NCBI GenBank assembly: GCA_965206595.1
Contig: OZ242214.1
Span: 1,394,986 to 1,458,985, forward strand
DNA: 64,000 bases
Direction: 5' to 3'
From: Candidatus Latescibacterota bacterium
GTDB taxonomy: Bacteria; Latescibacterota; UBA2968; UBA8231
Made by a program: the position numbers and the translations under genes. Below are positions 12,870 to 48,581 of the stretch, one piece after another. Under the pieces are notes generated by a model. It was given only the letters and a program-made list of their open reading frames with translations, ran no database searches and had not been told where the DNA came from. Each line of letters opens with the position of its first letter. Positions within the stretch are counted from its first letter, which is position 1.

Positions 12870-13884
12870 TAGTGTCCTGTCGTATAATTAACTGTACAAA
12901 CAATTGAAGGTGCCGTAGGTTTCTCTTATCCCCCTTCTGAAAGGAGAGACCTATGGTGACGGGGCGTCCATTACCGCCGTTAGAGCTGAGTCCGTCGGAC
13001 CGGGAACGATTGGAATCGATGGCCAAATCCCGGAGCCTTTCCCACGGGTTGGTGCGGCGAGCCGAGATTAGTCTGCTGGCCGCAGAAGGCGGGCCCAATG
13101 AAGCCGTCGCCGCCGCCGTGGGTGTGACGCGTGCTACGGCTTTCTCGAAAACGGGCAAGTGGCGCCGGCGCTTTCTCGAAAACGGGCTCCAGGGCTTGCA
13201 TATGGTTTGCAGCCCCATCGACACAAGCACTTCACGCTTTCCACCGATCCTTTCTTTGTCGACAAAGTACGGGATATCGTCGGCTTATACCTGAATCCCC
13301 CCGAGCACGCCCTGGTGCTGTGCGTCGACGAGAAGAGCCGGATCCAGGCGTTGGAACGAAGTCAGCCCATGCTGCCCCTGGGACTGGGATACGTGGAAGG
13401 GATTACGCACGATTACAAGCGCCATGGCACCACCACCCTGTTTGCCGCCTTGGACGTAGCCACCGGGGAAGTGATGACCCAGTGCAAGCCCCGTCATCGT
13501 CACCAGGAGTTCCTTCAGTTCCTGCGCCACATCGAGGCCCACGTCCCCGCTGACCTCGATATTCATCTCGTCGTCGACAACTACGCCACGCATAAGCATG
13601 CCAAGGTCAAGCGATGGTTGGCACGGCGTCCCCGATTTCACGTTCACTACACCCCCACCTATGCTTCGTGGCTCAATCAGGTGGAGATCTGGTTCAATAT
13701 CCTTACCCGCCAGGCGGTTCGCCGGGACTCGTTCCGCAAGGTGTCGGAGCTCATCGAGCGCATCGAACGCTACACGGCCAAATGGAACGCCAACGCACAC
13801 CCTTTCGTGTGGACGGCTACGGCCGATTCCATCCTCGCGAAAATCAAGAGACTTTGCGAACGAATCTCTGCGACACAACACTAG
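12870..13884 (+). mobile_element. IS630/Tc1-mariner-family insertion sequence, copy 1 (degenerate)
   Basis: Ends shared with copy 2 begin right after a TA on each side (TA|GTGTCCTGTCG ... CGACACAACAC|TA); imperfect 11-bp terminal inverted repeats; about 157 bp shorter than copy 2. Confidence 0.8.
12953..13884 (+). pseudogene. IS630-family DDE transposase, copy 1, inactivated by ~170-bp internal deletion plus a 12-15-bp duplication
   Basis: Split into ORFs 12953..13294 and 13159..13884; relative to copy 2 the segment encoding [16 protein letters not shown]...HRIWRTYGL is missing and CTTTCTCGAAAACGG is duplicated; otherwise near-identical at DNA level. Confidence 0.8.
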
Positions 13885-15768
13885 CCTGTCGAGTCTCCGC
13901 AGGGAGGCGAAATCCCTGCTCGACCGGGCGCGGCGCAAAGAGCATGAAGCGTTGGCCCTCATTGGCGAGCACCACCCGGACCCGGGAGAGTTCAGCACCT
14001 ATCGCGACGCCTTGCTGGTGGTCGCCCGCAAACAGGGGCATGCCGGGTGGGGGGAGTTGCAGCGGGCTTTCGAGGAGGAGGCCGGAGCCTCGGGAAAGCT
14101 CGAAGAACGGGCCGATCTGTTCGCCGAGCTCGCCTGCCTTTCGTATCGCGGCGACGACCACGTCAGCCGCCGAGAGCGCGCCGCCCGCATGCTGGGCGAA
14201 ACTCCTGGGATTTCCAGGGTGAGCCCCTGGGCAGCCGCGGCCGCTTCCGATGTCGAAGCTCTTGGGCAGCTGATCGGGGATGGGGAAAGCGCGGTCGTCC
14301 CCGGCGGGCGGCGCGACTGGCCGCCCCTCCTCTACCTCTGCTTCAGCCGGGTTCCGGATGCCCGGCCGGGGGGCGACGCCCTGGCCGCGGCGGAATTTCT
14401 GCTCGCCGCCGGCGCCCCCGGCGACACCAGCGTCGGCCCGGAGGAACGGGGGGGCTGGAGCTGGTCGGCCCTGACAGGGGTCATGGGGGAAGGGGAGCAT
14501 GGCCTCCTGCAGCAGCCCCCCCACCCGCGGGCCCGCGAGCTGGCGGAGGTGCTGCTCGACGCCGGGGCCGACCCCAACGACTCCCAGGGGCTCTACAACA
14601 CCATGTTCACCCCGGACAACGAGTGGCTCGATCTGCTCCTGTCACGCGGTCTGCAGGCCTCCGCAGTGGTCTATCCCTCCCACGACCCGCCGCTGAGAAC
14701 CCTCGACTACCAATTGTGCTCGGCGGTGAAGAGGGGGGTGGCCGAACGGGTGTCCCTGCTGCTGGGGCACGGCGCCGACGTGGCGGCACCCGATATGTAC
14801 AACGGCCGCTCGAACTACGAGAACGCCGTTCTCGGAGGCTTCCCGGAGATCGCGGAAATGCTGGCCCAGCACGGCGCCGAGGTTGTCGAGCTGTCCCTGG
14901 AGGACCGCTTCACCGCGGCGGTGATGAGCGGCGACGAGAGCAGGGCGAGACAGCTGCTTGAAGAAGCTCCCCGCATGATCGAGAACCCCGAGCTGCTCCA
15001 GGAAGCGGTCACCAATACCGCGGCGACGCGCCTGCTTCTCGACCTCGGGGCCGATCCCGACGCCCCGAACGAGAGGGGACGCGTCCCCCTGCACTGGGCC
15101 GCCTGGGAGAACAGCGGCGAGGTCGTCCGCCTGCTGCTGGCTCGCGGGGCGAACGGCGAGATCCGGGAGCGGGACCACGACGCCACCCCGGTCGGCTTCG
15201 CCAATCACGCCGGCCACTTCGAGCTTCGCGGCCTGCTGCTCGATCACAGCAGGGACGTGTTCGACCTGACCGCCTACGGAAGGGCGGGGCAGCTCGCCGC
15301 GGTCCTGGAATCCGACCCGGACCTGGCGAATGCCCGCCTCGTGGGAGGGCACACCCCGGTTCACGGCGTTGCGGCAGGCCCCGAAGGGGAACAGGTGCTC
15401 GACCTCCTGCTCGCCCACGGCGCCGACATCGACGCCCCTGCAGCCGACGGCACGACTCCGCTGTCCGCGGCGCTCGAGCGCGGGGACGAGGAGCTGGCAG
15501 CCCTTCTGAGGGCGCGCGGCGCCAGGGAACCCGAGGGGGACTGAGGCTCCCGGCGTTCCGGTTCGCCGCCGCAAAACCGACCATCCTGCCGGTTCCTCCA
15601 CTGACCCACCCGGGAGATCGGGTGCATTCGGCCGGGGCAACGAGGTGCCCCCCGGCGGTGAAGCAGCTGTCCGCCGCTTGTTCCGGGTCACCTGTTTGCC
15701 TATTAACGTGTCCGGCAGGCCTCGCCGCGGCGGGGCCGGGAGACCCAGGAGACACGCGGAGAATAGCG

Positions 15769-16644
15769 ATGGCCAAACGCGACCTGAACTTCGATCCCGA
15801 AGAGGGGATCGGCTTCATGAACATCGACGAGACCGACTACGGCGCCATGACCCTGGGGGAGAAGATGCGCCACCTCGAGGTCGAGGGGTACGTCGTCCTT
15901 CCCGGCGTTCTCGACGCCGATCGCATGGACCGCATCAAGCAGGAGATGGCGGACGCGCCGATGGGGACCAAGGACTACAGCGACTGCCAGACCTACCACC
16001 GCGAGCCGCAGTGGTACAGCCCGGCCCTGGCGGAAGCGATCGCCAATCCGCCCGTGGTCGAGTTCCTCGAGGCCCTCTGCGGCGAGGAGATCGTCTTCAC
16101 CCGCGGGCTGTTCACGCGCACCCTGTCCGGGTCCCCACCGATCTCCCTGCACACCGACGGGCAGCCGTTCGGCTCCTCGATCTTCGGGTACGAGGGCAGC
16201 TCGCCGAAGCTGCTGCGGGTGCTCTACTACCTCGACGACCTCACCCCCGAGCGGGCCCCCCTGCGCGTGCTGCCGCGATCCCACCTCTCCTTTCACGCCG
16301 ATGCCAACCCGTACGTGCGTTACAAGTCGCACCCGGGAGAGGTGACCCTTTGCGCAAAGGCGGGGACCGCGGTCGTATTTCCGGTCAACATCTTCCACGG
16401 CACCCACCCCAACCGGTCGGATGCGCTGCGCACCCTGGTGCAGCTGGGGTACCGTCCGGCCTGGGCGGGCCCGATTCAGCCGATGGAGGATTGGGACCCC
16501 GAGCTGGTCGCCGCCGCCCCGGCCGTGGCGCGCCGCTTCCTGCAGAGCCTCAACACCTCCGGGGTCGACTGGGAGCAGCCGCACAAGCCGGCGGGGATGA
16601 GGGCGGACGCGCCGGCGATCGCCCCGGAACGCTGGGAACAATGA
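15769..16644 (+). CDS. PhyH-family Fe(II)/2OG dioxygenase
   Basis: H-x-D (SLHTDGQ), distal His (FHGTHPNRSD), Arg. Start at ATG 15769 (MAKRDLNFDPEE) with GGAG RBS; the ORF track extension from 15622 is not credited. Confidence 0.85.
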   Translation: MAKRDLNFDPEEGIGFMNIDETDYGAMTLGEKMRHLEVEGYVVLPGVLDADRMDRIKQEMADAPMGTKDYSDCQTYHREPQWYSPALAEAIANPPVVEFLEALCGEEIVFTRGLFTRTLSGSPPISLHTDGQPFGSSIFGYEGSSPKLLRVLYYLDDLTPERAPLRVLPRSHLSFHADANPYVRYKSHPGEVTLCAKAGTAVVFPVNIFHGTHPNRSDALRTLVQLGYRPAWAGPIQPMEDWDPELVAAAPAVARRFLQSLNTSGVDWEQPHKPAGMRADAPAIAPERWEQ

Positions 16645-18594: not shown

Positions 18595-18599
18595 TTCCG

Positions 18600-19424
18600 A
18601 TGACGGCTGCTTCACAATGGGAGCCGGTGGAAGCCGGCCGCGGAGAGATTCTCAAGGCCCACGAGCGCCCGCTGGAGCTGCTGGGGCGCGGCGAGGTCCC
18701 TGCCCTGGTTATGCGCCGGGCTTTTGATCCCGCCCACTGCGCCGCCCTCGTCGAGCGCTTCTACGAGCGCCGCCTTTTCTACGACCCGCGGGGCGAGGGG
18801 GAGGCGGTCTCCCGCGTCGACGTCGGGACCAGCCTCGGGCGCCACCGCGGCGACCCCGAGGGGTTCTTCGCCCACGCCCGTCAGACCCAGGACCTCTTCG
18901 AGACCCTTTTCGAGGGGTACGACGATCCGGTCGCCTTCATCTACGAGACCCTGTCGGCGCTCGCCCCCGGAAAGCGGGTCATGGTCGCCCGCGAGCCGGA
19001 CGGCCGTCAGTACGGCCCGGCGATCTTCCGCACCTACTACGAGGGGGTGGGGCACACCCCGCACTTCGACTCCGCCCGCAAGCGGTCGAAGCTGTTCGAC
19101 CTGCAGGTGTCGCGGTTCGAGAAGCAGTTCGCCGCGGTGTTGTGCTTCCAGAACGCCCTCGATGACGAGGAGGGTGGCCACGCCTTCCTCTACCGGCGCC
19201 AGTGGTCGGAGGAACTGACCGAGGAGCTGCCCCGTTTCCGGGAGTACGCGGCCGGGCACGGGATCGAGCGGGTTCGGATCGATCTGCAGCCGGGGGACTT
19301 CTACATCTTCTGCTCCGAGACGATCCACGAGGTGCCGCCGCCGAAAGGGGATCGGCCCCGCATCGTCCTGGCCAGCTTCTTCGCGATGTCCCCGGAGGAC
19401 GACGAGATCTACGTCTGGTCCTGA
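18600..19424 (+). CDS. Putative Fe(II)/2-oxoglutarate oxygenase-like protein (family unassigned)
   Basis: 274 aa; candidate facial triad GVGHTPHFDS (H-x-D), distal His in IFCSETIHEV, Arg in RPRIVLASFF; ATG only 5 nt after the creatininase stop. Confidence 0.55.
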   Translation: MTAASQWEPVEAGRGEILKAHERPLELLGRGEVPALVMRRAFDPAHCAALVERFYERRLFYDPRGEGEAVSRVDVGTSLGRHRGDPEGFFAHARQTQDLFETLFEGYDDPVAFIYETLSALAPGKRVMVAREPDGRQYGPAIFRTYYEGVGHTPHFDSARKRSKLFDLQVSRFEKQFAAVLCFQNALDDEEGGHAFLYRRQWSEELTEELPRFREYAAGHGIERVRIDLQPGDFYIFCSETIHEVPPPKGDRPRIVLASFFAMSPEDDEIYVWS

Positions 19425-19447
19425 GCTTTTCCGGAAAACCGCCGGGC

Positions 19448-20359: not shown

Positions 20360-21226
20360 TCAGGCGACCACTATCGGGCGGTGGAGCAGGGTCTGGCTCT
20401 CGTAGATGGAGCCGCTGCGTCCCGGGCGGATGACAGCCGGCTCGGGCACCGCGGGAACGTCGGTGTGTCGCGGCTTGGCGATCGGCTTCCCCCTGATGAT
20501 GCAGGCGTCGAACGCGGCCATGTCCTCCGGCGGGTTCTTGATGGGCCAGGCATCGGCGGCGCAGTACTGCAGCAGGTAGAGACGGCGCGACCGGGTCTGG
20601 GAAGTGTTGGGTGCCGAGGCGTGCAGCATGGTGCCGTGGTGGATGGTGATCCCGCCCGCCTTCACCTCGACCGGGACCGCGTTCTCCGCGCCGAATTCGT
20701 TATCGGTGACGGCCCCGACGAAGAACTCCTCCTGGTAGTGGTTGTAGATCGGCCCCCGGTGCGATCCGGGGACGACCAGCAGGCAGCCGTTCTCCAGGTT
20801 CATGTCGTCGATGGCCACTCCCACGGCCAGGATGTCTTCGTTGGTGCGCGCGCAGAAGGCGTAGTCCTGGTGCCATTCGACCGGGCTGCCGAACCCGGCC
20901 GACTTCATGTTGAGCTTGCCGCTGAAGTGGCGGATGTCCGGGCCGACCAGCTGCGCGACCTTGTCGAGAATGCGGCTGTCGCGGAAGATGCGGTCGTACG
21001 CCGGGTGCAGCTCCTCGGGATGCTTGAGGCGCCGCAGGCGCGGGGAAGCGGGGCTGTGCCCGGGCTCGAGGTCGAAGTCCTCGTCGTTCTCCGTCACCTG
21101 CCGGGAGCGCTCGACGAACTCGTCGGTTACCCGCCTGAGCTCCTCGATCTCCGGGCCTGAGAAAACCCCTTCCACGCTGGTGTAACCCCGGGCGTGGTAG
21201 GCTTCGACCTGTTCCTGTGTCAGCAT
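20360..21226 (-). CDS. PhyH-family Fe(II)/2OG dioxygenase
   Basis: Canonical N-terminus MLTQEQVEAYHARGY; H-x-D (EWHQDYAF), distal His/Arg (TIHHGTMLHASAPNTSQTRSR). Confidence 0.9.
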   Translation of the reverse strand: MLTQEQVEAYHARGYTSVEGVFSGPEIEELRRVTDEFVERSRQVTENDEDFDLEPGHSPASPRLRRLKHPEELHPAYDRIFRDSRILDKVAQLVGPDIRHFSGKLNMKSAGFGSPVEWHQDYAFCARTNEDILAVGVAIDDMNLENGCLLVVPGSHRGPIYNHYQEEFFVGAVTDNEFGAENAVPVEVKAGGITIHHGTMLHASAPNTSQTRSRRLYLLQYCAADAWPIKNPPEDMAAFDACIIRGKPIAKPRHTDVPAVPEPAVIRPGRSGSIYESQTLLHRPIVVA

Positions 21227-24892: not shown

Positions 24893-25985
24893 AGCAAGTC
24901 CCCGGAATACAACGGACGCGAGCACGGGTGGTCCGCCCATTACGACGGCGAGTGGGTCTCGGCCGTACTGGCGGTGTTTCTGCGCGTGGTGGGCGGCTGG
25001 TATCGACGTCAGGCGCAGGCCATGGGCCATGACCGCGCGCGGTGGGGCTCGGTGACCTTCGTCCAGCGGTTCGGTTCCTCCCTGAACCTCAATCCCCACA
25101 TGCACGTGCTCATGCTCGACGGGGTCTACGTCGATGGGGAGGACGCTCCGGTTTTCGTAGCGGCCCCGCCGTTGTCGGACCAAGCCGTGCAGCAGATCGT
25201 GGAGACGAGTGCGCGCCGCATCATCCGCTTGTGCACGAAACGCGGCCTGTTGGACGACACCGCCGCCGATCCGCTCGCCGACGAGGAGCCGGTGCTGGCG
25301 GCTCTCACCGCGGCTTCGGTGCGAGGGCTCACCGCCACACCGGGGCCCGCGCCGGCCAACGCCTGCGCCGGGTCCTGAAAGATCCGGCCACCGGGGTGCG
25401 TACGGCGCCCTTGTGCTTTGCTTCGCGCGGCTTTTCGCTGCATGCGGCAACGCGGATCGCAGGCCCTGACCGGCGCGGGCTCGAACGCTTGTGCCGCTAC
25501 GTGGCCCGGCCGCCCTGGCGGGAGGGCGTCTGCGCTTTGTCGATGCCGACCCTCTTTCCTTCGCGCTCAAAACGCCGTGGTCGGATGGGACCCGCCATCT
25601 CCTGCTGTCTCCGATGGACCTGCTGGAGAAGCTGGCGGCTCTGGTTCCCCCGCCCCGGTTTCATCTCCTGCGCTACCACGGGGTCCTGGCGCCCCGGGCC
25701 CGGGCCCGCGAGCGCATCGTGCCGGCCAAGCCGGTTGCCGAGTCGTCGTCGGCGGACGGCTCGGCGAGCGTTGCGTCCTGCGGCCATCGACTGCGGTGGG
25801 CGACCCTGCTGGCGCGGGTGTTTTCCTCCGACCTCAGCGAATGCGCGGCATGCGGCGGTGGCCTGAGAATCATCGCCGCCCTGACCGATCCGGCCTCGAT
25901 CCGGACCTATCCGGAGGGGGTAGGGCTGCCGGCGATGCCCCCGCCGAGGGCCCCGCCTGAGCCGCTGTTCGAGTTCGCCGCCTGA
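24893..25985 (+). pseudogene. IS91-family (HUH, rolling-circle) transposase remnant: 5'-truncated and frameshifted
   Basis: Pieces in three frames: HUH-like NLNPHMHVLMLDGVY (ORF 24974..25378), LCRYVARPPW region (frame of 25042..25866), C-terminal FHLLRYHGVLAP plus Cys-rich CGHRLRW...CAACGG (ORF 25491..25985). Open frame begins only at 24893, directly after the ydjM-like gene, so the N-terminal ~100 aa are missing. Confidence 0.65.
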
Positions 25986-26289
25986 CCTGCCTTCTCGACC
26001 CGTCGCCGTCGCCGGGCGTACGGCGGGGGGTGCCCTCAACGGTCCCTCAGGCCCCGGATTTTGATCCGGATACGGGCCTACAGGCAACCAAACTGTACTG
26101 CGAGCTCGGCCGAAGGACTGGCAAACGATCCTCAGGGAGCTGCCTGACCCTAGCGGTGCGCTCAGCGCCTTGACCCGAGAGTCCAAAAAAGGTGCCTCAT
26201 TTTACCTATACTCAACGACGATGATGGCGCTCATAGCTCACCTCCATCTTTAAGAGACTGTTTCTGCATCGACCTTCTAATCCATTCGA

Positions 26290-26445: not shown

Positions 26446-26472
26446 CAACCTTGACTCCCTCGTAACAACCCC
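26446..26472. repeat. IS1182 IR-like repeat, inner left copy (imperfect)
   Basis: CAACCTTGACTCCCTCGTAACAACCCC; 3 mismatches to the core; 165 bp from the transposase stop. Confidence 0.6.
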
Positions 26473-26636
26473 GTTTTCAAGGCAGAGAATTTTTCTTGAA
26501 ACTTTAGTTTCACCAACATGAAAAGAATCGGGAATGCGCCGCTATTCAAGCAGCTTCAGCGCTCTATCGTCCGATGGCCTCGAATCGGGCTTATAAGGCC
26601 TTTTTGCGGCACCGAAAAGGACCTCCGTTCCCTTTT

Positions 26637-28382
26637 TCAGCCCATCGCCGGAGCTATGGCTTCGGGTTTGGGCGTAAGCGCCCGCAGCATTCTCTTGAAA
26701 TTGCAGGCCAGGGCTTTCAGGTAGACGGCCAGCTCCACGCGCCAGCGTCCGCGCACACGCAGGGCGCCCAGCCCGTGTCTTCGTTTCAGTTCCGAGACCG
26801 TGGCCTCGATGCCGGCGCGAATGCGATAGCGCTCCTTGAAGGCGCCGCTGGCGATGGCGCGGCGGCGGCGTTCGAGGTTGACGGCTTTCAGGTCCACGGT
26901 TACGGCGTAGCCGTCCCCGTCCTGGTTCGGCCGCACCGGGCAGAGGGGAAACAGGGCGCAGGTCTGGCAGCTTCGGCGCTCGAAGGTCAGCACCACGTGG
27001 TGCTTCTTCTTCTCATACGACGTTTGCTCTCTAGCCAGGTATCCGGCCGGGCAGATGGCCGGATCCCGGAGACGGGCCTCGACGAGGAAGTCGGCTTCGG
27101 TCACCGTATCGGGGCGCTCCTCGACGTCGACCTGCGGGCCTTTGACCGGGCTGACCAACTCGGTGCCCAGGCGCTCGGCGTTGACGGCGTTGTCGCCGGA
27201 GCCGAAGGCGGTGTCGGCGACCAGCTCGTCGGGTCGTTGCCCGCGCTCTTCGAGGGCCTCCAGCACCGGCATCGTCGCGTGCTCGTCACTGGCGCAGGCA
27301 TCGGTCACCGCTACGTGGGTGATCCTGTTCACGGTGTCGGTCTGGTCGTCGTCGGTCTGGTCGTCGTCGGTCTGGTCGTCGTCAGTCTGGTCGTCGTCAG
27401 TCTCGACGCAGGTCTCGGCGATCTGCACCTCATACCCCTTGCCCTTGCGGCCGTGGTAGGTGGCCTCGGCATCATAGGGGCTTTGCAGCGAGTCGCTGCC
27501 GACCTTCTCAGGCGCCTTCAGCACCACCGGCACGCCGCCTTCGCCGGCGTCGTCGTCCTCGGTCGAGGGGCGCTGCTTGTCCACGATCACCTCACACTGC
27601 TCCCACAGCAGGCGCTGCAGCAGCGCGTAGGATGCCAGGCCCTCCGCCGCCGTGCCCGCAAACAGCTGATGGAGACGGTAGAGGTCGCGGGCGCACACCG
27701 GCAGCCGCCTCTTGCCCGTGCCGGAGGGCGCGTCCTGGTAGGCCGTGGCGCTGCCGTCCTCCTTCAGGTAGCGCTCGCGCAGGCGCTTCGACACCCGCCC
27801 GTACAGGCGCGGATGCTCCGCCGCCAGGGTTTTCAGAAAGTGACGGAGGGTCTCACACAACAGCCCCAGACGCGACAACACCGCGATGTTGCTGAGCACG
27901 TGGGTGGAGTCCAGACGCTGCCGGGTGACCTTCGTACCCAACGCTTGGAGAATGCCATCCGTGGTCGCCTCGAACGCCTGCCGGCCGCGGTCATGGGCCA
28001 GCAAGCGAGCGCGGAAGTTGTGCAGCGTCAGGACGTTGTTAGTCCTCGTCTTCTGCGCCAGGTGGGCCTCCTCCGGGGTCAGCTCCAGGGCGTGCTGCCA
28101 CAGCAGGCTGAACTCCAGCTGCTCCAGCGCCTCGGCGTCGGTCAGAGCGAACATCTCCTTGAGCAGAAGCACGCCCAAGACCGTCGCCACCGGCTGGTTG
28201 GGACGACCGTTGTCGTCGCAATACAAGAGCGCGAACTGTTCTTCGTCGATCAGCGGCAAGGCGTGCGCGCGAAAGCTCTCGGCCCAGCTCGCCTGCAGGC
28301 GCCGCTGCTTGGACGGAGGCACCAGGTTGCGGCTCTCGAACAGGGTGCGTTGCGAATCCTTCGTACGAAACATCAGCCCCAT
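26637..28382 (-). CDS. IS1182-family DDE transposase
   Basis: 581 aa; N-terminal MGLMFRTKDSQRTLFESRNLVPP, C-terminal Cys-rich region (CQTCALFPLCP), acidic linker with (DDDQT)x4. Confidence 0.8.
   Translation of the reverse strand: MGLMFRTKDSQRTLFESRNLVPPSKQRRLQASWAESFRAHALPLIDEEQFALLYCDDNGRPNQPVATVLGVLLLKEMFALTDAEALEQLEFSLLWQHALELTPEEAHLAQKTRTNNVLTLHNFRARLLAHDRGRQAFEATTDGILQALGTKVTRQRLDSTHVLSNIAVLSRLGLLCETLRHFLKTLAAEHPRLYGRVSKRLRERYLKEDGSATAYQDAPSGTGKRRLPVCARDLYRLHQLFAGTAAEGLASYALLQRLLWEQCEVIVDKQRPSTEDDDAGEGGVPVVLKAPEKVGSDSLQSPYDAEATYHGRKGKGYEVQIAETCVETDDDQTDDDQTDDDQTDDDQTDTVNRITHVAVTDACASDEHATMPVLEALEERGQRPDELVADTAFGSGDNAVNAERLGTELVSPVKGPQVDVEERPDTVTEADFLVEARLRDPAICPAGYLAREQTSYEKKKHHVVLTFERRSCQTCALFPLCPVRPNQDGDGYAVTVDLKAVNLERRRRAIASGAFKERYRIRAGIEATVSELKRRHGLGALRVRGRWRVELAVYLKALACNFKRMLRALTPKPEAIAPAMG
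27336..27404. repeat. 15-bp tandem repeat (about 4.5 units, GTCGGTCTGGTCGTC) inside the IS1182 transposase gene
   Basis: Three perfect units at 27336-27380, then a G->A variant and a partial unit; encodes the DDDQT repeat on the minus strand. Confidence 0.85.
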
Positions 28383-28459
28383 CCAGTAAAGAGGAAGTGT
28401 GTGACGGATTGGTATACACCAATATACCAGGAACCCTTGATTATCAGGGCTGTGAGAGA

Positions 28460-28486
28460 GGGGTTTTTACGAGAGAATCACTCTTG
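28460..28486. repeat. IS1182 terminal inverted repeat, right (transposase-proximal) end
   Basis: GGGGTTTTTACGAGAGAATCACTCTTG. Confidence 0.7.
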
Positions 28487-34474: not shown

Positions 34475-35040
34475 ATGCGAAAAGAAACGGAATACTCCTG
34501 GAAGGAGCATCGCGTCCTTCGGGGTGACGGCCGGGGCGGATACGTCGTTCATCCGGCGCAGTACCGGTTCGTGCCCCGCTACCGGGGGGTGAAGGTCCTC
34601 CCCTTCGGGCTGGCCGCCACGGACAACGGGGAGATTCTGCTAACGGGGGCGGCGAGAACCGGCCGCGGTCCGTCGGTGTACGGAGAGACCGTGGCTTCCA
34701 TTAGCGCCGACCTCGGGGTTACCTGGAGCGAGTACGAAACCGCGGGGTTCGGTCCGGCCGTGCGCCTGACCTTGCTCGGCCGCGGCAGGCCTCTTATCGA
34801 GACTGGCTGCGCCCCTTGCTCGCCGAGCTTCCAGGGGCGCGCTTGGCTATCGTCGGGGGATGCCCGTCCCGGGAGGACCTCGAGCGGTTCTTTGCGGGCA
34901 CGCCCACGGTGTTCGTCGGATACCTGCAAGGGGAGGAGCTCGCCCACGCCTACGCCAGCGCCGACCTCTTCGCCTTTCCCTCGGCCAGCGAGACCTTCGG
35001 CAACGTCGTCCTCGAAGCCGCGACCTTCCGGCAGTGGCAG
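34475..35040 (+). pseudogene. Juxtaposed gene remnants: Asp-box (BNR-like) protein N-terminal fragment fused out of frame to a family-1 glycosyltransferase C-terminal fragment
   Basis: ORF 34343..35326 from ATG 34475 (MRKETEYSW ... [12 protein letters not shown] Asp-box); a second frame from ~34780 gives a GT-B C-terminal signature ([25 protein letters not shown]...[37 protein letters not shown]) that stops making sense at ~35030, where the convergent GT39-like gene ends. Confidence 0.4.
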
Positions 35041-35044
35041 GCAT

Positions 35045-37537
35045 TCAATCTGCTTTCGTTTCCTCCGATGCCTCGATCCACGGCGCCAGTTCCGTCCCCA
35101 GTCCGGGATCCAACTCAACGGCTCTTTGGAGGTGGAACAAAGCCTGGTCCCGATGATCCGGGATGGGGGCAAGGATCTGCCCCAGGCCTCCATGGACACG
35201 CGCTTGTTTGTCGTCCAGCTTCAAGGACAGCTCGAGAAACTTAGCAGCATTCTCGTGGCTGTTCTCGCGAAGTGCGATATGCGACAGGAAATTGTACGCC
35301 TTGGGAAGTGGATGAATCCGGATTGACAACGACAGTAGTTCGGCCGCGGTTACCTTTGCTCCGCGGTCGTATAGATTCAGGGATAGAATTGAATATTGAT
35401 TCGCCAGCCAGGATGTATCACTAGTGGGCTGGGAGGCTTGGCGAGCCCCTTCCTCAAGTACGGAAAAGGACAAGCCGGGCAAACCAAGTTCAACCAGACT
35501 CATCCCACTTGCCCAGAAATACAGATACTGAAAGCGATCCACGGTCCCGGTCAGGTACAGTTCCATTGCCTCTTTGTCTGACTGCCCCATCCGCTTCAGA
35601 ACCTCCGCTTCGACGAGATGGGCAACCTTCGACTGGGGCAACTGCCTTTTCGCTTCTGAGATCGCCCGCAGGCTCGCGTTGAGGTCCCCTTCCCGAAGGG
35701 CGGAAGCCGCGGTTTCCAGTAAAGGATCGGCACAATACGGGCTTGTCGGCATCCGCTCCTGAAAATGCGTCCAGGCTGCTTGCCACTCTGTTTCATCCTT
35801 TCTGAAGACCATGACAGCCGGGTGGTCGAAGCCGGTGAACGACGGTTCGCTCCCATCGTCCCGGAATTCCAGGCCGCCGATGGAAGGGTAGTTTTTGAAA
35901 CGGCGGACCAAGTCAAAACCCAGATCGCCCTCCACCAGCGCCTCGTATAATGCCGCCCCGCCCGGAATCAGCTCCGGGACTGCGGTGAAATGCTGATAGC
36001 GGTTGACGTCGGTGATGACGATATAGTCCAGAGCGTCCAACTGCCTCTTCAGCCAATAGAGCTCTCCTTTGCAGGTCGCGAATCCGCGGAATTGGAAGAG
36101 CATCAACGTTTGGAAAGCACCGATTTGGAATTTTGCGGGATCGATCATACCCCGCATGGAGAAGGCGCCCCGTTCGACTCCGATACTGCTGTTGGCCGGG
36201 ACATGGTCGTTTATCCACCGGGCAGTCTGGACGCGGCTGTCCTCACGGGTATAGAGGCTGGCAAAGGCAACGCCGTACAGTGCGCTGTACGCGAACACCG
36301 CGGCGCAGATGCCGACGGCGAGCATGCGCACCCGGACGAAGCGGGGAGAGCGGACGAACCAGACGCAGAAGTCGGCTGCCAATAGGGCGAGGAAAGGGAG
36401 CAGGGGCAGGAGATACCGTATGTGCTTGGTATGCAGGCCGCCGATCAGGAAAAAGTAGATCCCCGCCCAGAGCAGGATAAGTCCATTTCGATGGTTCCTT
36501 TTCCAAAGGCCGCGGGATATCCCGAGAAGGAAGAGGAGGGTAAGAGGCCAGCCCACTCCCAGGGGCCACAGGTGGGTCCAATAATGCAGGTATGGGACGG
36601 TGTGAACATCCACCAGGCTCCAGGGAACGAGACGCTCTCCCCGAGCCACTATCATCGAATATCCCAGGTCGTCGGAGGAATGGGCCCGGAAAATCAGGTC
36701 CCAGTCCGTAACGAGAAACGGCTGGAGCGCCAGCAGGGCCAGCACCGCGGCGAGACCTGCCATCCAAATCCGGGGTGCCAGGACTGCCTTCAGGTGTCGC
36801 TGGCGAACCAGATGGCCGGCCAGCAGCACGAGCCCCACCGACAGGCCGATCAGGCGGACGGCCCCACTGAGCCCTATCAGAAAACCGGACCATATGAACC
36901 ACCGCCTGTCATCCTTTTCTAGTGCATTCAAAAGGGCGTGAACCGCGGCCAGGACAAGCAGAGCGAACAGCCCGTCGACGGTGTAGAAATGGGCGAGCTG
37001 GATCGCCAGCGGGGCTACGGCAACGATGAAGACAGCTAGCAGCCCGGTCAGCTCACCGAACCAGCGAACCCCGGCCAGCCAGACCAGGTACAGCGTCAGG
37101 CAGGAGACCAGCACCGCAAGGGTGCGGGCAGTGAGATATACATACCGGACATCATCGGGCGATTCCTGAGATTTGAAGTCGCGGCCGAGAACGATCCGGT
37201 TGAGCTCCAGGAAGCCCCGCAAGAGATAGACAGGGAGCGTGCCGTAGCTGGTCAGCTCTGGGGCGAACGGGTCGATGGGACCCAGGGCAGCCTGGACGAG
37301 AGTGGTTTCATCCGGATGGAAATGGTAGAATGCTCTGTCGCCTGTGGACTGGTTTGGTCCAGGCAGCACGAAGGAGCTGTCCCCCCGGGTCAACCCTGCG
37401 AAGCGCAGCGAGCAGCCCAGTACGAGGCATATAGCCAGAAAGAGGGAAGGGACTCGGGTTTTCTTTCTATGTCCACTCATGGGTGGTTTTTTACGAACAG
37501 CATGACCGGGGCATGATGGCTGCCGGTTCAGTCCCAT
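35045..37537 (-). CDS. Polytopic membrane glycosyltransferase (GT39/GT83-like, PMT/ArnT fold) with C-terminal TPR-like repeats
   Basis: 830 aa; many hydrophobic helices; DE motif in the first loop ([10 protein letters not shown]); C-terminal helical repeats. Start ambiguous between 37537 and the ATG at 37480. Confidence 0.6.
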
Positions 37538-37769: not shown

Positions 37770-38522
37770 CTACGCCACCCGCTGGCCGCCCCGCAGCACC
37801 GGCAGCCGATCCCCCCAGGGCTCGCCGGTGCGCACCAGGACCGGGTCGGGCACGTGGTACTGGGGCACATAAGCCCGCCGCGGCCGGTCCCTGGAGGTAT
37901 TGGGACCGCTGCGATGCAACAGCAGCGATGAGAACACCGCCACCTGCCCGGCGCGCATCTCCACCGGAATGGCCCCGTCGTCATCCACCTGGGCGTTCTT
38001 GCCCCCGTAGCGTTGCTCGTCCTCCTCTTCCGTTACGTGCTCGAGCACGCCGCGCCTGTGGGATCCGGGAATGATCCATATGCAGCCGTTCTCGAGGTCG
38101 GAGTCGGAGATCGCCGTCCAGCAGGTGATGTACTCCAGCGGCTCCGTCTTCGTATAGCCTGAATCCTGGTGCCAGTCGAAAACCTTGCCGAGGCCTCCGG
38201 GCATTTTCGTCGTCGCCTGGTTGTAGTAGAGATCCACATCCTCCCCGATTAGGAGGCGGCAGGCTTCCAGGTAAACCGGCTTCCTGAGGAAATCGAGCGC
38301 CACCGGGCTCAGGGTGTGAAACTGGGAGAACGAGCGGCGTCCGCGAGCGCTTTCCACCGCCGGGGCATCCCCAAGGGCCTCCGCCTCGCGCACGTGCTCG
38401 GCGTATACCCGGTCCATCTCCGCCGCCATCGGTTCGAGCTCCCCAGGAGAAAAAACCACGCCGGTAACGAAGTAGCCCAGCTCGCGAAACTGCTGCACTT
38501 CTTCAGTGCTGATCAGGGTCAT
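37770..38522 (-). CDS. PhyH-family Fe(II)/2OG dioxygenase
   Basis: H-x-D (DWHQDSGY), distal His/Arg (LLLHRSGPNTSRDRPR). Start at ATG 38522 (MTLISTEEVQQFRELGYF); ORF track opens at GTG 38561. Confidence 0.8.
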   Translation of the reverse strand: MTLISTEEVQQFRELGYFVTGVVFSPGELEPMAAEMDRVYAEHVREAEALGDAPAVESARGRRSFSQFHTLSPVALDFLRKPVYLEACRLLIGEDVDLYYNQATTKMPGGLGKVFDWHQDSGYTKTEPLEYITCWTAISDSDLENGCIWIIPGSHRRGVLEHVTEEEDEQRYGGKNAQVDDDGAIPVEMRAGQVAVFSSLLLHRSGPNTSRDRPRRAYVPQYHVPDPVLVRTGEPWGDRLPVLRGGQRVA

Positions 38523-38583
38523 GGGGCACCGCTTTTTGAGAGGTTGCTTCCGGTTGGCCACCCGGGCCCGGAGGAGAAAGAGG

Positions 38584-42696: not shown

Positions 42697-44439
42697 TCAT
42701 TCGTACAGCTCGACCGCCGTTTCCCCGCGGGCAAAGCGCTGCGCCGTCTGCGCGGCCGACTGGGAGCCGATGCTGCGGCGGGCGTCCGTCGCCCAGCGGG
42801 CCAGGCCGACCAGAAGCTGGCCCCGGGCCGGATGCCCTGCGCAGTGCTCCCACTCGTCGAACACGGTGCGCAGCGTGTGCAGCAGCGACCAGCCGTTGTC
42901 GTCCTTGAGAATCGTCAGGCCGAGCTCGGACAGCAGCCGGTTCCCGGAGTGACCGCTGTTGAGGTAGTCTCGGGTCATGCGGCCGATGTCGCGGATCCGG
43001 ATCGACTCGACGGCCTCCAGGATAGCCTGCAGGGCCCCGTCGGCGGCGGGGTTCTCTCCCTGTTCCGGTTCGGAGCCTCGCCCCGGACGCTCGGTAAGTT
43101 TCCTGGTCGAGATGTTGAGCCAGCGGTTGTCGAAGAAGCGCCAGGCCGCGTGATAGCAGGCGCGCGCGGCAATGGCGAAACCGGCCTGTTTCTCAATTGA
43201 CCTGAGGCTCGAACCCAGAGCCATTTCCCATGCCAGGTCGTGCCAGCCAGGGCTCATGCCGACCGGCGTGCGCGCCATGCGGTCGGCCGCCAGCAGCACC
43301 ATGGTCGTGGCGATCCGGTCTATCGAGGCCCCCTGTCTCAAGACCTCGGAAACGGCCCCGAAGGTCGTGGCGATATCCCCGCTCACCAGGGCATCGGAAA
43401 ATGCGTTCTCGTCGAAATCCCCGCCTCCGCCCTGCTTCGATGCCTCTTCGATCACTGCATCGGCGGCGGTGAACAGATCCATGGCCTCGCGCAGCACGTC
43501 CATCGGAACGGGCCGGCCGCGGCCGAGCATCTTTCCGGCGAGGTTGCAGACCAGCTCCTCGCTCAGATCCCATCCGAACTCGTCGAGCAGCTCGGCGAGA
43601 TGGGTGAGGTTCCTCAGGTTGTCCTGTTGCCCCAGGAAGTGGGGCAGCACCGCGCACTCCAGCAGCAGGGGAACGATGGCGCCGTCGTGACCCCGCAGGC
43701 GGCGCGCGGTTATCAGGCACTTCTCGATCCCCTCAGGCATCTTGTCGGAAGCGAAGAAGCGAACCCATCCGGCGAGCTTCGGCCAGTCGACCGGCGGCGG
43801 CAGAGGTTCCACCTGAGGGCGGTCCCCCGCCGTTCCCGCGGCGGCCGAGGCTGCCATCATCAGGGGGATCAGGCGGTCCTCCGGCTCGTAGCGCCGCGCC
43901 ACGTTCAACCCGTTGACGAACTGGGCGACGTCGTGGCCCCCGTTCTCGTGCCGGTGGGTGGTGATGTGCCCGCCCATGTGGCGCACGATCAGCTCCAGGG
44001 TTTCCCGCTCAGACACACCCTTGGCCAGCAGGATGGCGATCGCCTTCGACAGCGTCCAGCTGTCGCCGTTGTTGAGACCCTCCTGCAGCAGCAGGAAGTG
44101 GGCGTCGGGGCGCTTCGAGCCGCCACTGGCCACGTCGACGAAGACAGCCCCGTCCCGCACCTGCACCGGGAAGGTGTCGAGATCGTCGCAGCCCCCCGTA
44201 AAGCAGCCACCGCCCGCCATGTCGTAGCTGTACCCGTGCCAGTCGCAGGTGAGGACGCCTCCGCGGGCGATCCCCCTGGTGAGGGGGTAGCCCATGTGGG
44301 GACATTGGTTGTCGGTCGCATACAGCTCGCCGTCGTGAAGGAACAGGGCGACGCTGTGCCCATCCACCCGCACCGCTTTCGGCTTTCCCTCCTCGACCTC
44401 GGCGAGGTCGGCAACCCTCGCGAAGCTGTCCTTCATCAT
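42697..44439 (-). CDS. Rieske [2Fe-2S]-domain fusion protein, paralog 1 (N-terminal Rieske + ~450-aa domain of unknown function)
   Basis: Rieske ligand boxes CPHMGYPLTRG and CDWHGYSYDM about 17 residues apart; no family recognised for the C-terminal domain; conserved blocks shared with paralog 2 (e.g. LLAADRMARTPV). Confidence 0.8.
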   Translation of the reverse strand: MMKDSFARVADLAEVEEGKPKAVRVDGHSVALFLHDGELYATDNQCPHMGYPLTRGIARGGVLTCDWHGYSYDMAGGGCFTGGCDDLDTFPVQVRDGAVFVDVASGGSKRPDAHFLLLQEGLNNGDSWTLSKAIAILLAKGVSERETLELIVRHMGGHITTHRHENGGHDVAQFVNGLNVARRYEPEDRLIPLMMAASAAAGTAGDRPQVEPLPPPVDWPKLAGWVRFFASDKMPEGIEKCLITARRLRGHDGAIVPLLLECAVLPHFLGQQDNLRNLTHLAELLDEFGWDLSEELVCNLAGKMLGRGRPVPMDVLREAMDLFTAADAVIEEASKQGGGGDFDENAFSDALVSGDIATTFGAVSEVLRQGASIDRIATTMVLLAADRMARTPVGMSPGWHDLAWEMALGSSLRSIEKQAGFAIAARACYHAAWRFFDNRWLNISTRKLTERPGRGSEPEQGENPAADGALQAILEAVESIRIRDIGRMTRDYLNSGHSGNRLLSELGLTILKDDNGWSLLHTLRTVFDEWEHCAGHPARGQLLVGLARWATDARRSIGSQSAAQTAQRFARGETAVELYE

Positions 44440-44449
44440 GATCTCCTCT

Positions 44450-46216
44450 TCAATCGTCGAAGACGCCTACGGTGGTGCGGCCCTCGGCGAACCGCATCGC
44501 CGTGGTCGTGGCCGATCCGCTCTCCGCGTTGGTGCGGATGTCGGTGGCGTAGCGGGCGAGGGCGACCAGCAGCTGGGGCCTCGAGGGATGTCCGCACCCG
44601 GCCGCAGGGTCACCGGAGCCGCCCGCCTCCCACTCCTCCGAGATGGTGCGCAGCGTGGGCAGCAGCTGCGGCCCTGTGTCGTTCCAGAGAATCAGTCGCC
44701 CTAGCTCATGGAGAAGCCGACTGCCGTCGAAACCGGCATGCAGATAGGCGTGGACCTGGTCGCCGACTTGGGCGACCTGCAGGGTTTCCACCGAGCCGGT
44801 GATGGCGGCGATGCCGGCCTCCTCGGTTGCCCAGGCGTGCTCCCGCGCCGGCTCCGGGGTTGCGCTCAGGGGGTGCCTTGAGATGTTGAGCCAGCGATCG
44901 TCGAACAGCTGCCAGGCGAGGTGAAACAGACCCATGACGGCGACGCGATCTCCAGCTTCGGCCTGAGCGGTTCGCAGCGACCGGGCGAGATTCAGTTCCT
45001 GGGTCAGACACCCCCAGCCGGCATCGACGTTGACGGGAGTTCGGGCCATGCGGTCGGCGGCGAGCAGGACAAAGGTGGTGATCAGGCGTTCCAGGCGGAC
45101 CCCGGAGGCCAGGGCCGTGGCGACCCCGTCGAAAGAGCGATCGATGTCGACGCTCAACAGCGCTTCAACCAGGGCATCTTCGTCGTATTCGATCCGGGTG
45201 CGATCGCTTTCCGCGGCGCTGTCGATCGCCTGTCTGAGGGAGATCATCTTGTCGATGGCGTCCCGCTTGAACAGCTGCGGCTCGCCCCGCCGCTGGCCGA
45301 CGGTCTTGGAGCCGAGATTCAGGGTGAGCTCGGAGGCCGCTTCCCAGCCGAAGGATTGGGTCAGCTCGGTCAGGTACCCCAGGGTCTGGAGATTGTCGCT
45401 GAATCCGAGAAAGCCGGGCTGCGCGGCGCATTCGTACAGCAGCGGAAGGATGCGGCCCTCGTCCCCCTTGAGCCGCGCGGTGAAAAGGCACCTCTCGATG
45501 CGGTTATCCTGGCCGTTGCGGGAGAAGAGCCGCACCCAACTGGCGATGCGGTCCCAGGTGACCGGCTCCGGCAGGACGACCACCTCGAGGCGCTCCGACG
45601 CTTCCCCGGCGACGCAGGTGGCCGCGGTGGCCAGCGCCATCAGGCGGTCCTCGCCGTCGTAGCGGCGGCCGATGGCTATCCCGTTGACGAAGCGGGCGAG
45701 ATCGACGCCGGCGCCGGCGCCCCGCGAGCTGGCAACGTGTCTGCCGAAATGCCTGAGGATGACGGCGACGATGTCGCTTTCCGGTACCCGTCCGCGCAGC
45801 ATCAGGGCCATGGCCTTGGAGATCGTCCAGCGGTCCTCGTGCAGTAGTCCTTCACGCAGCAGCCGCAGGTGCTGCTCCCTGCGGCGGTAGGCCCCATCTC
45901 CCGGGCGAATCCAGACCTCCTCGCCGCGAACCTCTACGGGAAACACCTCGAGGTCGTCGCACATGTTGTTGAAACAGCCGCCCCCCTCGAGGTCGAAGCG
46001 GCGTCCGTGCCAGTCGCAGGTGAGAACGCCGTTGCGGATCGCCCCGCGCGTCAGCGGGTATCCCATGTGGGGACACTGGTTGTCGGTGGCGTAAATGCGG
46101 CCCTCGACGTTGAATAGGGCGATGCTGCGCCCTTGGCCGACCCGGACGGCCTTGGCGCCTCCCGGTTCTATCTCTTTCAAAGCCGCTACTCTGGTCCAAC
46201 CGTTTGCCGTTGCCAT
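44450..46216 (-). CDS. Rieske [2Fe-2S]-domain fusion protein, paralog 2 (tandem duplicate)
   Basis: Same architecture: CPHMGYPLTRG ... CDWHGRRFDLEGGGCF, collinear C-terminal domain (TTFVLLAADRMARTPV); 10 bp upstream of paralog 1 on the same strand. Confidence 0.8.
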   Translation of the reverse strand: MATANGWTRVAALKEIEPGGAKAVRVGQGRSIALFNVEGRIYATDNQCPHMGYPLTRGAIRNGVLTCDWHGRRFDLEGGGCFNNMCDDLEVFPVEVRGEEVWIRPGDGAYRRREQHLRLLREGLLHEDRWTISKAMALMLRGRVPESDIVAVILRHFGRHVASSRGAGAGVDLARFVNGIAIGRRYDGEDRLMALATAATCVAGEASERLEVVVLPEPVTWDRIASWVRLFSRNGQDNRIERCLFTARLKGDEGRILPLLYECAAQPGFLGFSDNLQTLGYLTELTQSFGWEAASELTLNLGSKTVGQRRGEPQLFKRDAIDKMISLRQAIDSAAESDRTRIEYDEDALVEALLSVDIDRSFDGVATALASGVRLERLITTFVLLAADRMARTPVNVDAGWGCLTQELNLARSLRTAQAEAGDRVAVMGLFHLAWQLFDDRWLNISRHPLSATPEPAREHAWATEEAGIAAITGSVETLQVAQVGDQVHAYLHAGFDGSRLLHELGRLILWNDTGPQLLPTLRTISEEWEAGGSGDPAAGCGHPSRPQLLVALARYATDIRTNAESGSATTTAMRFAEGRTTVGVFDD

Positions 46217-46263
46217 TTCCTATTTCGATTTGTCGAGGCAGTGCCGGGATTGCCCGCCGGGGA

Positions 46264-47172
46264 TCACCGGGCCGCCTTGACCCCGGGCATGGCCGGGACG
46301 TAGGACTGCCGGCGCCGATTTCCCGATGTCCATGCGGCGTCGGCGGGGTGGTGCTCCTCAAGCCATTCCCGCAGCGGGGCTTCGCCCTTTTCTGGCGCGT
46401 ACGCGCTGTTGTTGCTCGGGTTGTCGCGGAGCAGCTGCCGCCGGATCGAGTCGAGCCCTGGGTAGAGGTGTTGGACGGTCATGTCGTCCTTGGGCAGCAG
46501 CCAGCGGTAGCTGTAGCCCATCATCAGCATCTTGCGCGTCTCGTGCCAGCTGTTGACGCTGCGGCTGTGCCAGATGCGGCGGTCGATGATGACGGAGGTG
46601 CCGGGCGGCACGCACAGGGGAATCGCCCCCTCCGGGCTGGAGCGGCCGTCTTCGGGAACGTCGATTTCGTCGTGCAGGTGCGATCCCGGGACGATAAGTG
46701 TGTTGCCGCGGCCGGTCCCGGACATGTCGCTGACGAAGAAGAAGACTTTGATGGAAAGCCGTGGGCGCGGCGTCGCCTCGATTTCGTCGTTAACCCGCAT
46801 GCTGTCCTGGTGCCAGGCCACGGTGGGGCCCGATCGCCGCCGGTCCGGGTCGCCCGGGGGGGTCACCAACAGGCCGGAGTGGTAGATGCAGATGTTCCAG
46901 CCGAGTATTCCCCAGACCTTGGGGAAGGTGGTCTCCCAGTCGATCAGGTCGAGAAACAGGGGGTTCTGGCCGATGATGTCGGGAATGTCGATGGGGTCGT
47001 GCGGCCCGAATCCATAGGCGCGCTGCTTTGCGGCGACCAGGCGGTCACAGGCATGCCGGAGGGCCTCGGTGCGGTCGGACGGCAGGGCGTCCGGAACGAC
47101 GAGGTAGCCCTGTTCCTCGAACTCGGCGCGCTCCGAATCGGTCAGGCAATGGGCCAGGCAGGAGGGAGTCAT
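46264..47172 (-). CDS. PhyH-family Fe(II)/2OG dioxygenase
   Basis: N-terminal LTDSERAEFEEQGYLVVPD, H-x-D (AWHQDSMR), distal His/Arg (IWHSRSVNSWHETRK); 47 bp upstream of Rieske paralog 2. Confidence 0.85.
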   Translation of the reverse strand: MTPSCLAHCLTDSERAEFEEQGYLVVPDALPSDRTEALRHACDRLVAAKQRAYGFGPHDPIDIPDIIGQNPLFLDLIDWETTFPKVWGILGWNICIYHSGLLVTPPGDPDRRRSGPTVAWHQDSMRVNDEIEATPRPRLSIKVFFFVSDMSGTGRGNTLIVPGSHLHDEIDVPEDGRSSPEGAIPLCVPPGTSVIIDRRIWHSRSVNSWHETRKMLMMGYSYRWLLPKDDMTVQHLYPGLDSIRRQLLRDNPSNNSAYAPEKGEAPLREWLEEHHPADAAWTSGNRRRQSYVPAMPGVKAAR

Positions 47173-47409
47173 GAGCAGAAAGATAGAACCGGGGACGGCC
47201 TATCCAAATAGTGTCAGGGGCAGGGATGCGAGGGCAAGCAGGGCGATGGCCAGGACCCGGAGGTAGCATCCCTTCGCGACTGTCGGCGTGCCATCAGGCG
47301 GTCGACACCTTACCATGATCGCCGCCGGTCCATGCCGCTACAGGCTAGTCCAAAACAGGGCAGGAATGAAACAACTTGGAATGCGGGGGAAACAGTGGTA
47401 CCGTTATGC

Positions 47410-48581
47410 TAGTGTCCTGTCGTATAATTAACTGTACAAACAATTGAAGGTGCCGTAGGTTTCTCTTATCCCCTTTCTGAAAGGAGAGACCTATGGTGAC
47501 GGGGCGTCCATTACCGCCGTTAGAGCTGAGTCCGTCGGACCGGGAACGATTGGAATCGATGGCCAAATCCCGGAGCCTTTCCCACGGGTTGGTGCGGCGA
47601 GCCGAGATTAGTCTGCTGGCCGCAGAAGGCTGGCCCAATGAAGCCGTCGCCGCCGCCGTGGGTGTGACGCGTGCTACGGTCGGCAAGTGGCGCCGGCGCT
47701 TTCTCGAAAACGGGCTCCCGGGCTTGCATGATGAGCTGCGCTCAGGGGCGCCACGATCGAGTACGGATGAACAGGTAGCCGAGGTGGTATACAAGACCCT
47801 GAAGACCAAGCCCAAAGACGAAACACAGTGGTCGGTGCGCTCCATGGGCGAAGAAACCGGCTTGACCAAGGACGCGGTTCATCGCATTTGGCGCACGTAT
47901 GGTTTGCAGCCCCATCGACACAAGCACTTCACGCTTTCCACCGATCCTTTCTTTGTCGACAAAGTACGGGATATCGTCGGCTTGTACCTGAATCCCCCCG
48001 AGCACGCCCTGGTGCTGTGCGTCGACGAGAAGAGCCGGATCCAGGCGTTGGAACGAAGTCAGCCCATGCTGCCCCTGGGACTGGGATACGTGGAAGGGAT
48101 TACGCACGATTACAAGCGCCATGGCACCACCACCCTGTTTGCCGCCTTGGACGTAGCCACCGGGGAAGTGATGACCCAGTGCAAGCCCCGTCATCGTCAC
48201 CAGGAGTTCCTTCAGTTCCTGCGCCACATCGAGGCCCACGTCCCCGCTGACCTCGATATTCATCTCGTCGTCGACAACTACGCCACGCATAAGCATGCCA
48301 AGGTCAAGCGATGGTTGGCACGGCGTCCCCGATTTCACGTTCACTACACCCCCACCTATGCTTCGTGGCTCAATCAGGTGGAGATCTGGTTCAATATCCT
48401 TACCCGCCAGGCGGTTCGCCGGGACTCGTTCCGCAAGGTGTCGGAGCTCATCGAGCGCATCGAACGCTACACGGCCAAATGGAACGCCAACGCACACCCT
48501 TTCGTGTGGACGGCTACGGCCGATTCCATCCTCGCGAAAATCAAGAGACTTTGCGAACGAATCTCTGCGACACAACACTAG
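47410..48581 (+). mobile_element. IS630/Tc1-mariner-family insertion sequence, copy 2 (intact)
   Basis: About 1.17 kb; TA at both junctions; same imperfect 11-bp terminal inverted repeats as copy 1; single intact transposase ORF. Confidence 0.85.
47493..48581 (+). CDS. IS630-family DDE transposase (intact, 362 aa)
   Basis: N-terminal helix-turn-helix-like region, DDE-type core ([15 protein letters not shown] ... [19 protein letters not shown] ... [12 protein letters not shown]); RBS GAAAGGAGAG. Confidence 0.9.

Follow-up and report, generated by a model that had tools for sequence, protein, structure and literature searches.

The 64,000-nucleotide stretch of Candidatus Latescibacterota DNA analysed here (contig OZ242214.1 of assembly GCA_965206595.1, positions 1,394,986 to 1,458,985; the window, in what follows) carries two near-identical copies of an insertion sequence (IS) assigned to the IS630 family, which lie in direct orientation on either side of 33.5 kb of oxygenase-rich DNA. 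In our opinion, the two copies are very probably independent insertions into native chromosome, the bracket being a by-product and the 33.5 kb between them not a cargo. The history that we propose would consist of two separate, simple cut-and-paste insertions of one element of ~1.17 kb into a chromosome that was already contiguous, each at the TA of a CTAG tetranucleotide with duplication of the TA. Copy 1 would have been the first to land, in an ankyrin-repeat gene at codon 10, when the window strain and a sister strain had not yet split; it would afterwards have lost 169 bp and gained 12 bp, its ability to make transposase now being gone, and with both ends kept it could be moved in trans. 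Copy 2 would have landed after the split, upstream of a small gene with a signal-peptide-like product, its transposase gene being still intact. This is ordinary mobile-element activity: an old copy, now decayed, and a recent one, still intact, lie on either side of native genes, and no new mechanism or system is revealed; what is left as new is a strain-level polymorphism and a hint of concerted evolution.

The two copies of the element

Pairwise alignment of 12700-14100 with 47250-48750 and a repeat scan placed the element twice on the + strand, and the scan gave no further long repeat involving the pair. The match is uninterrupted from 12869/47409 to 13884/48581, and the sequence on both outer sides is unrelated between the copies, for which reason a segmental duplication was rejected. 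The original prediction had described the pair as near-identical IS630 copies in direct orientation at 12870-13884 (1015 bp) and 47410-48581 (1172 bp), which gives a start-to-start spacing of 34,540 bp and an interval of 33,525 bp. Alignment, repeat scan and family profiles bear out this description, and the copies lie where they had been placed; the ranges, however, take in the duplicated TA and the G of the CTAG target. By the CTAG/TA rule discussed below, the true bodies would be 12872-13881 for copy 1 and 47412-48578 for copy 2 (1167 bp), both on the + strand. The left TA of copy 1 (12870-12871) is preceded by C at 12869, forming the half-site C|TA, and its right TA (13882-13883) is followed by G at 13884; the TA duplications of copy 2 are at 47410-47411 and 48579-48580, where relatives have a single CTAG.

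The copies are 99.4% identical over aligned columns. The differences had been given as a ~170-bp deletion, a short duplication and a few substitutions, and they were seen as 169 bp, a net gain of 12 bp and four point substitutions (12934, 13091, 13191 and 13287). The longest perfect stretch, on the 3' side, measures 597 bp, or 684 bp with one mismatch. With related genomes as outgroups, two private derived substitutions were assigned to each copy, so that, in their present form, the copies cannot be parent and offspring of each other. Searches with the 23-nt left end and the 26-nt right end, even when up to three mismatches were tolerated, gave exactly two hits each in the window and none in shuffled sequence; extra copies or miniature derivatives within the window were rejected on this basis.

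Copy 1 was recognized as a degenerate, non-autonomous deletion derivative from its end-to-end alignment with copy 2 and its exact termini. The junction of its 169-bp internal deletion lies at 13200/13201 and corresponds to copy 2 47729-47897; the same 169 bp are retained in the sister-strain element at the same site and, as their number is not divisible by 3, the loss causes a frameshift. At 13140-13153, 14 nt stand in place of 2 nt, a complex insertion that repeats the 17-nt motif CTTTCTCGAAAACGGGC located 32 bp downstream and that is absent from copy 2, the sister-strain element and all outgroups. The leftover open reading frames (ORFs) contain only the helix-turn-helix (HTH) region (12953-13294) or only the DDE_3 domain (13159-13884), whereas copy 2 has an uninterrupted ORF of 362 amino acids (aa) at 47493-48581 on the + strand, in agreement with the prediction of one degenerate and one intact copy. 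Copy 1 therefore has what characterizes a non-autonomous IS derivative, that is, both ends kept and a transposase ORF broken by an internal deletion. Copy 2 is full length: 13 copies from related Latescibacterota genomes align with it along all of its 1172 bp.

Insertion sites of the two copies

Relatives of the right boundary were obtained as long-read metagenome contigs from a look-up of the 92-aa protein encoded at 54772-55050. In the sister strain (ERZ25071132:ctg820168, locus L089), which is conspecific with that of the window, position 47412 is joined straight to 48578 via a single CTAG. This contig is 99.68% identical to the window over 48578-64000 and 98.8% over 43604-47412, and the 318 bp on the left and the 213 bp on the right of the copy 2 site are without any difference. 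In seven further loci of relatives (L083-L088 and L090), whose flanking DNA is 91-96% identical, the CTAG at the same position is unoccupied and the gene order is that of the window, namely, a gene for a 161-aa protein, a PhyH gene and a pair of Rieske genes. The region at the copy 2 site was thus contiguous before the insertion.

The 161-aa protein, with a signal-peptide-like N-terminus, is encoded at 48612-49097 (+), and in relatives its gene adjoins the PhyH gene without any element between them. Copy 2 ends 31 bp upstream of the ATG at 48612; the ribosome-binding site AAGGAGG has been left in place and everything further upstream displaced. Read-through from the transposase gene is possible, both genes having the same direction, and a scan for consensus sigma-70 promoters around copy 2 found nothing. 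A look-up of the 161-aa protein itself returned only an uninformative low-coverage contig of 1.1 kb, which begins 16 bp away from the element.

At the left boundary, the argument comes from the gene that copy 1 interrupts. Precise in-silico excision of the copy 1 body and one TA puts the ATG at 12844 in the same frame as the ORF ending at 15544, giving an ORF of 562 aa. The detached 5' end (12844-12871, +) covers the ATG and nine codons (MSVDRPSRP) and runs one base into codon 10; the rest of the gene (13884-15544, +) has Ank_2, Ank and Ank_4 matches in Pfam. An exhaustive HMMER search with the part downstream of copy 1 found many full-length homologues of 556-567 aa, whose residues 10-13 align with the first codon after the element. 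The restored N-terminus, MSVDRPSRPSLSSLRREAKSLL (first 10 residues MSVDRPSRPS), resembles those of homologues, such as MSVHLPDRPSLSSLRKQAKSLL in P0001 and also MSNLPVRPSLTSLRKQAKSVL, and the conserved RPSL motif crosses the insertion point. As excision restores the ORF and the homologue N-termini match, the sequence at 12844-12871, outside the bracket, and that from 13884 onwards, inside it, were once one gene, from which copy 1 would have removed the start codon and the first nine codons. In the sister-strain contigs, the gene caller of those contigs gives a truncated ankyrin product of 530 aa. A scan of metagenome contigs with the restored ankyrin protein yielded only distant ankyrin proteins (28-53% identity, partial) and no orthologous empty site for copy 1.

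The bracketed segment between these two sites (13885-47409, 33,525 bp) is syntenic with relatives across both boundaries. It contains oxygenases of the 2-oxoglutarate (2OG)/PhyH type, dehydrogenases, an aminotransferase, TonB-type receptors, the Rieske pair and two older IS remnants, and genes for PhyH-type oxygenases and TonB-type receptors are found both inside and outside the bracket. The contents that had been predicted for the interval were all found in their place: four PhyH genes (15622-16644, 20360-21226, 37770-38561 and 46264-47172), the Rieske pair (42697-44439 and 44450-46216, both minus), an IS91 remnant (IS91/ISCR-type fragments at 24974-25985) and an IS1182-like element with its transposase gene at 26637-28382 (minus).

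Relative ages of the insertions

The sister strain is represented by two samples (ctg820168 and ctg565413) that are 99.98% identical over 14.1 kb. It has a full-length element exactly at the ankyrin site (L081 8002-9175 and L095 4927-6100), in which the 169 bp are present, the 12-bp insertion is absent and a +1 frameshift of its own is found; the sequence of this element is identical in the two independent assemblies. Since the sister strain has the element there, the ankyrin-site insertion predates the strain split, and the loss of 169 bp from copy 1 and the arrival of copy 2 are both specific to the window lineage. Of the two insertions, copy 1 is thus the older; copy 2 is recent and confined to the window strain. 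The proposal that near-identity means recent transposition therefore stands for copy 2, which has an empty site in a strain with 99.7% identical flanks, and fails for copy 1, which is shared with the sister strain.

Family assignment, target site and relatives of the element

The transposase of copy 2 has an N-terminal HTH region and a DDE_3 domain according to Pfam (85.6 bits for DDE_3, plus HTH_23/HTH_32) and scores 270.3 bits, with a cut-off of 100, against the NCBIfam equivalog NF033545, 'IS630 family transposase'; the runner-up family, IS481, reaches 62.9 against a cut-off of 224. Candidate catalytic residues, recognized by motif, are D178, D261 and E297 inside the DDE_3 match, with spacings of 82 and 35 (DD35E), and a 35-residue D-E spacing is classical for IS630 (PMC11544213). 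The terminal inverted repeats are short and imperfect (GTGTCCTGTCG / GTGTTGTGTCG), with 14-nt arms, CTAG included, that are 86% complementary. Size and coding content, a 1167-bp body with a single 362-aa ORF whose TAG stop overlaps the right TA duplication, are also those of an IS630. Profile score, DD35E motif, CTAG/TA target, inverted repeats and size all point to the IS630 family, to which we assign the element on sequence grounds. The transposase of copy 2 is apparently active, to judge from its intact ORF and, indirectly, from the insertion polymorphism between strains with 99.7% identical flanks.

C-TA precedes and TA-G follows both window copies and likewise the 13 copies found in three related genomes (15 out of 15), with unrelated sequence beyond. 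CTAG is eightfold under-represented in the window, with 26 sites when 207 are expected from base composition, and there are 1061 TA dinucleotides. Being so rare (26 of 1061 TA sites), CTAG as the site of all 15 insertions is a real target rule, in line with the CTAG target with 2-bp duplication given for IS630 (PMC2577343, table 1, citing Tenzen & Ohtsubo 1991). Four of the 26 CTAGs in the window are half-sites made by the two insertions.

Relatives of the element were collected by a scan of species-representative genomes, which provided 80 loci for the analysis of ends, target and outgroup states; among these 80 loci, none showed synteny with the window outside the element. The closest transposases in that scan belong to Candidatus Latescibacterota metagenome-assembled genomes (MAGs), with 95%, ~88% and 77% aa identity and several copies per genome. 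The copies in CBDETY010000003.1, OZ244619.1 and CBDCNM010000001.1 are like the window element in length (1173-1174 bp), ends and CTAG/TA target, with 86-94% nucleotide and 87-95% aa identity, but they occupy unrelated genomic sites that are not syntenic with the window, as species-level variants of one element lineage. In cultured bacteria, the best annotated relatives are IS630-family transposases of Burkholderia and Ralstonia replicons, at ~62% aa identity. The features shared with IS630 of Shigella sonnei and with the IS630 family of the IS630/Tc1/mariner superfamily are a length of ~1.15 kb, one ORF with HTH and DDE regions, the 35-residue D-E spacing (PMC2577343; PMC11544213), short terminal inverted repeats and CTAG with a 2-bp TA duplication. 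In contrast to the characterized members, to which it is only distantly related in sequence, the window element comes from an uncultured phylum and is known from sequence alone.

Another IS630-family element was found in a related contig (L086 5622-6695), beside a GH42 beta-galactosidase gene. It encodes a 357-aa transposase and, being only 67% identical in nucleotides, was rejected as a third copy of the window element and regarded as a different family member. This suggests that more than one IS630-type lineage has inserted in this genome group.

Exact-protein look-ups returned no record for the transposase, the 302-aa and 263-aa PhyH proteins, both Rieske proteins and the PMT_2 protein. The window's own strain appears not to be in the protein collection that was looked up.

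Alternative explanations

Several observations weigh against two simple insertions that afterwards remained undisturbed. Between the strains, the element at the ankyrin site has 17 substitutions in ~1003 bp (1.7%), whereas ~6.9 kb of unique flank has 3 differences (0.04%), so the element is ~40 times more diverged than its flanks; a history in which it inserted once and then diverged in place fails, and gene conversion, re-insertion or a consensus artefact is needed. The copy 2 transposase has a Q76P change with respect to the outgroups, which is also found in the sister-strain element. Moreover, both copies, as we have them, are features of assembled sequence and not of individual reads.

An explanation that would account for part of this, and that we regard as possible although we do not favour it, is that the near-identity of the copies partly comes from ectopic gene conversion (concerted evolution) between dispersed IS copies, in which case the repeats would already be recombining homologously. 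The contrast between 1.7% divergence of the element and 0.04% of the flank at a shared site speaks for it, and so do four derived states that copy 1 and copy 2 have in common versus the sister-strain element and the outgroups (13071, 13235, 13413 and 13618), combined with site 47719, at which copy 2 groups with the sister strain instead, a conflict that can be read as a mosaic signal. The IS1182-like element shows the same excess of divergence, with 94.9% identity between strains compared with 99.4% in its flanks. However, the same pattern would result if the sister-strain copy had been the one overwritten, from excision followed by re-insertion at the same CTAG, or from a mis-polished repeat consensus in the window assembly, and the mosaic depends on one conflicting site. 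Among the biological readings, the simplest one hinted at by these data is that dispersed IS copies exchanged sequence by ectopic gene conversion in one of the lineages.

A stronger proposal is that of a composite transposon at its birth, in which the arrival of copy 2 makes the oxygenase-rich 33.5 kb movable or deletable as a unit while the copies are already exchanging sequence by ectopic gene conversion; we consider it unlikely. Still less probable is that the whole 35.7 kb is a composite of the Tn630 type, which arrived or moves as a unit by means of the left end of copy 1 and the right end of copy 2. The arrangement does resemble Tn630-NC1 of Nitrosomonas communis and the composite of Tenzen & Ohtsubo 1991, in which two IS630-type copies, one or both degenerate, are placed around other genes (PMC11544213). 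In the window, the two outer ends and one transposase ORF have remained intact, and the direct orientation provides a normal pair of left and right ends. Furthermore, transposition of IS630-based composites has been obtained experimentally (Tenzen & Ohtsubo 1991, cited in PMC2577343), and natural IS630 composites are rarely reported, with one example on record (PMC11544213). What is not found is insertion or movement as a unit. The sequences inside and outside the bracket were contiguous before insertion at each boundary, which excludes arrival as a unit; the sister strain has the copy 1 site occupied and copy 2 absent; the interior is syntenic with relatives that do not have copy 2; and no second location of the unit was found. 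Unlike Tn630-NC1, the window has 33.5 kb of native, syntenic chromosome between insertions of different age, with no sign of unit movement, and its 35.7 kb are ~5.5 times the length of the only reported natural Tn630 (6,461 bp, PMC11544213). The TA duplications are uninformative on this point, because every insertion makes a TA.

Finally, that one copy is an assembly artefact, a repeat misplaced or duplicated by the assembler, is hardly credible: copy 2 is indeed absent from the sister strain, and the related assemblies, and so probably the source of the window, are long-read metagenome assemblies of low coverage (6x-15x according to the labels of related contigs), but each copy has its own flanks, its own TA duplication in CTAG and private substitutions or indels, and copy 2 is inserted base-exactly with respect to the empty site, with a clean target duplication that misassembly would not make.

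Recombination between the copies and significance

Two independent insertions into native chromosome, as we prefer to read the pair, leave behind a long direct repeat. Direct repeats longer than ~0.5 kb can generally mediate deletion or amplification, and 597 bp of perfect homology are enough for a RecA-dependent crossover. RecA-type recombination may now be able to use the ~0.6-1 kb of repeat to delete or duplicate the interval. A crossover between the repeats would delete or duplicate 34.5 kb, and the deletion product would read GACCCAGCCGCCC-TA-element-TA-GATGGTATCC. From their Pfam assignments, none of the annotated genes in the interval looks essential. The window is similar to other IS-bracketed segments prone to RecA-mediated deletion or amplification in having direct repeats with 597 bp of perfect identity at a distance of 34.5 kb; in contrast to them, neither a deletion or amplification product nor a recombinant junction was seen among the handful of related contigs examined.

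The value of the case is, we think, modest. An IS630-family element that is apparently active is put on record for Latescibacterota, a phylum without a cultured model, together with a base-exact insertion polymorphism between strains, the knockout of an ankyrin gene and an insertion in the promoter region upstream of a small gene. For users of the assembly, a direct repeat at 34.5-kb spacing should be flagged, as it can confuse assemblers and generate deletion variants.

Other features of the window

The IS1182-like element extends from 26446 to 28756. Its 581-aa transposase ORF is intact in the window and split into 410 + 176 aa in the sister strain (L095), the alignment of the whole stretch with that strain having 19 gaps; the transposase scores 176 with the NCBIfam IS1182 profile, under the cut-off of 270. 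Next to it, the two ORF fragments at 24974-25985 match the Y2_Tnp and ISCR clade Ia/IS91 profiles far under their cut-offs, and they would be a decayed remnant of a rolling-circle-type transposase. Short pieces of this area (25094-25219 and 25671-26039) are found again close to IS630 copies of another Latescibacterota genome (L007, L008).

The Rieske genes are tandem paralogues with ~45% aa identity and an N-terminal Rieske domain, followed by a C-terminal region of ~480 aa without any Pfam or NCBIfam match, and in all relatives they are conserved beside a PhyH gene. In one relative (L087 17564-20278), window position 45972 is joined to 44361 at a 161-nt repeat, D3; this relative has apparently lost one Rieske paralogue by recombination between the tandem copies. 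Besides the four PhyH-family genes inside the bracket, the window has others at 7888-8820, 53906-54979 and 56581-57600, seven altogether, and beyond these seven a WelO5-like 2OG oxygenase at 18600-19424. Dehydrogenases, a class IV aminotransferase, a creatininase-family gene and TonB-type receptors lie in between, and such a set of 2-oxoglutarate oxygenases is unusually dense. The PhyH gene at 20360-21226 is intact in the window (288 aa), but in the gene calls of both sister-strain assemblies it is divided into parts of 149 and 147 aa.

The G+C content dips to 0.57-0.59 at 28000-30000 and 35000-37000, compared with about 0.65-0.70, and these dips cover a gene with a double PPIase domain (28757-30142) and one for an 830-aa PMT_2/TPR glycosyltransferase-like protein (35045-37537). 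Somewhere between 28756 and 43604 the sister strain is ~2 kb longer than the window. Downstream of the bracket, a gene for a 394-aa GFO_IDH_MocA oxidoreductase, which the more distant relatives have, is only a remnant in the window (53429-53846) and is missing in the sister strain as well. In the conserved 601-aa gene at 49157-50958 (minus), with a C-terminal FeS_assembly_P domain, a 1-nt deletion at 49643 relative to the sister strain causes a frameshift, which marks either a strain-specific pseudogene or a sequencing error.

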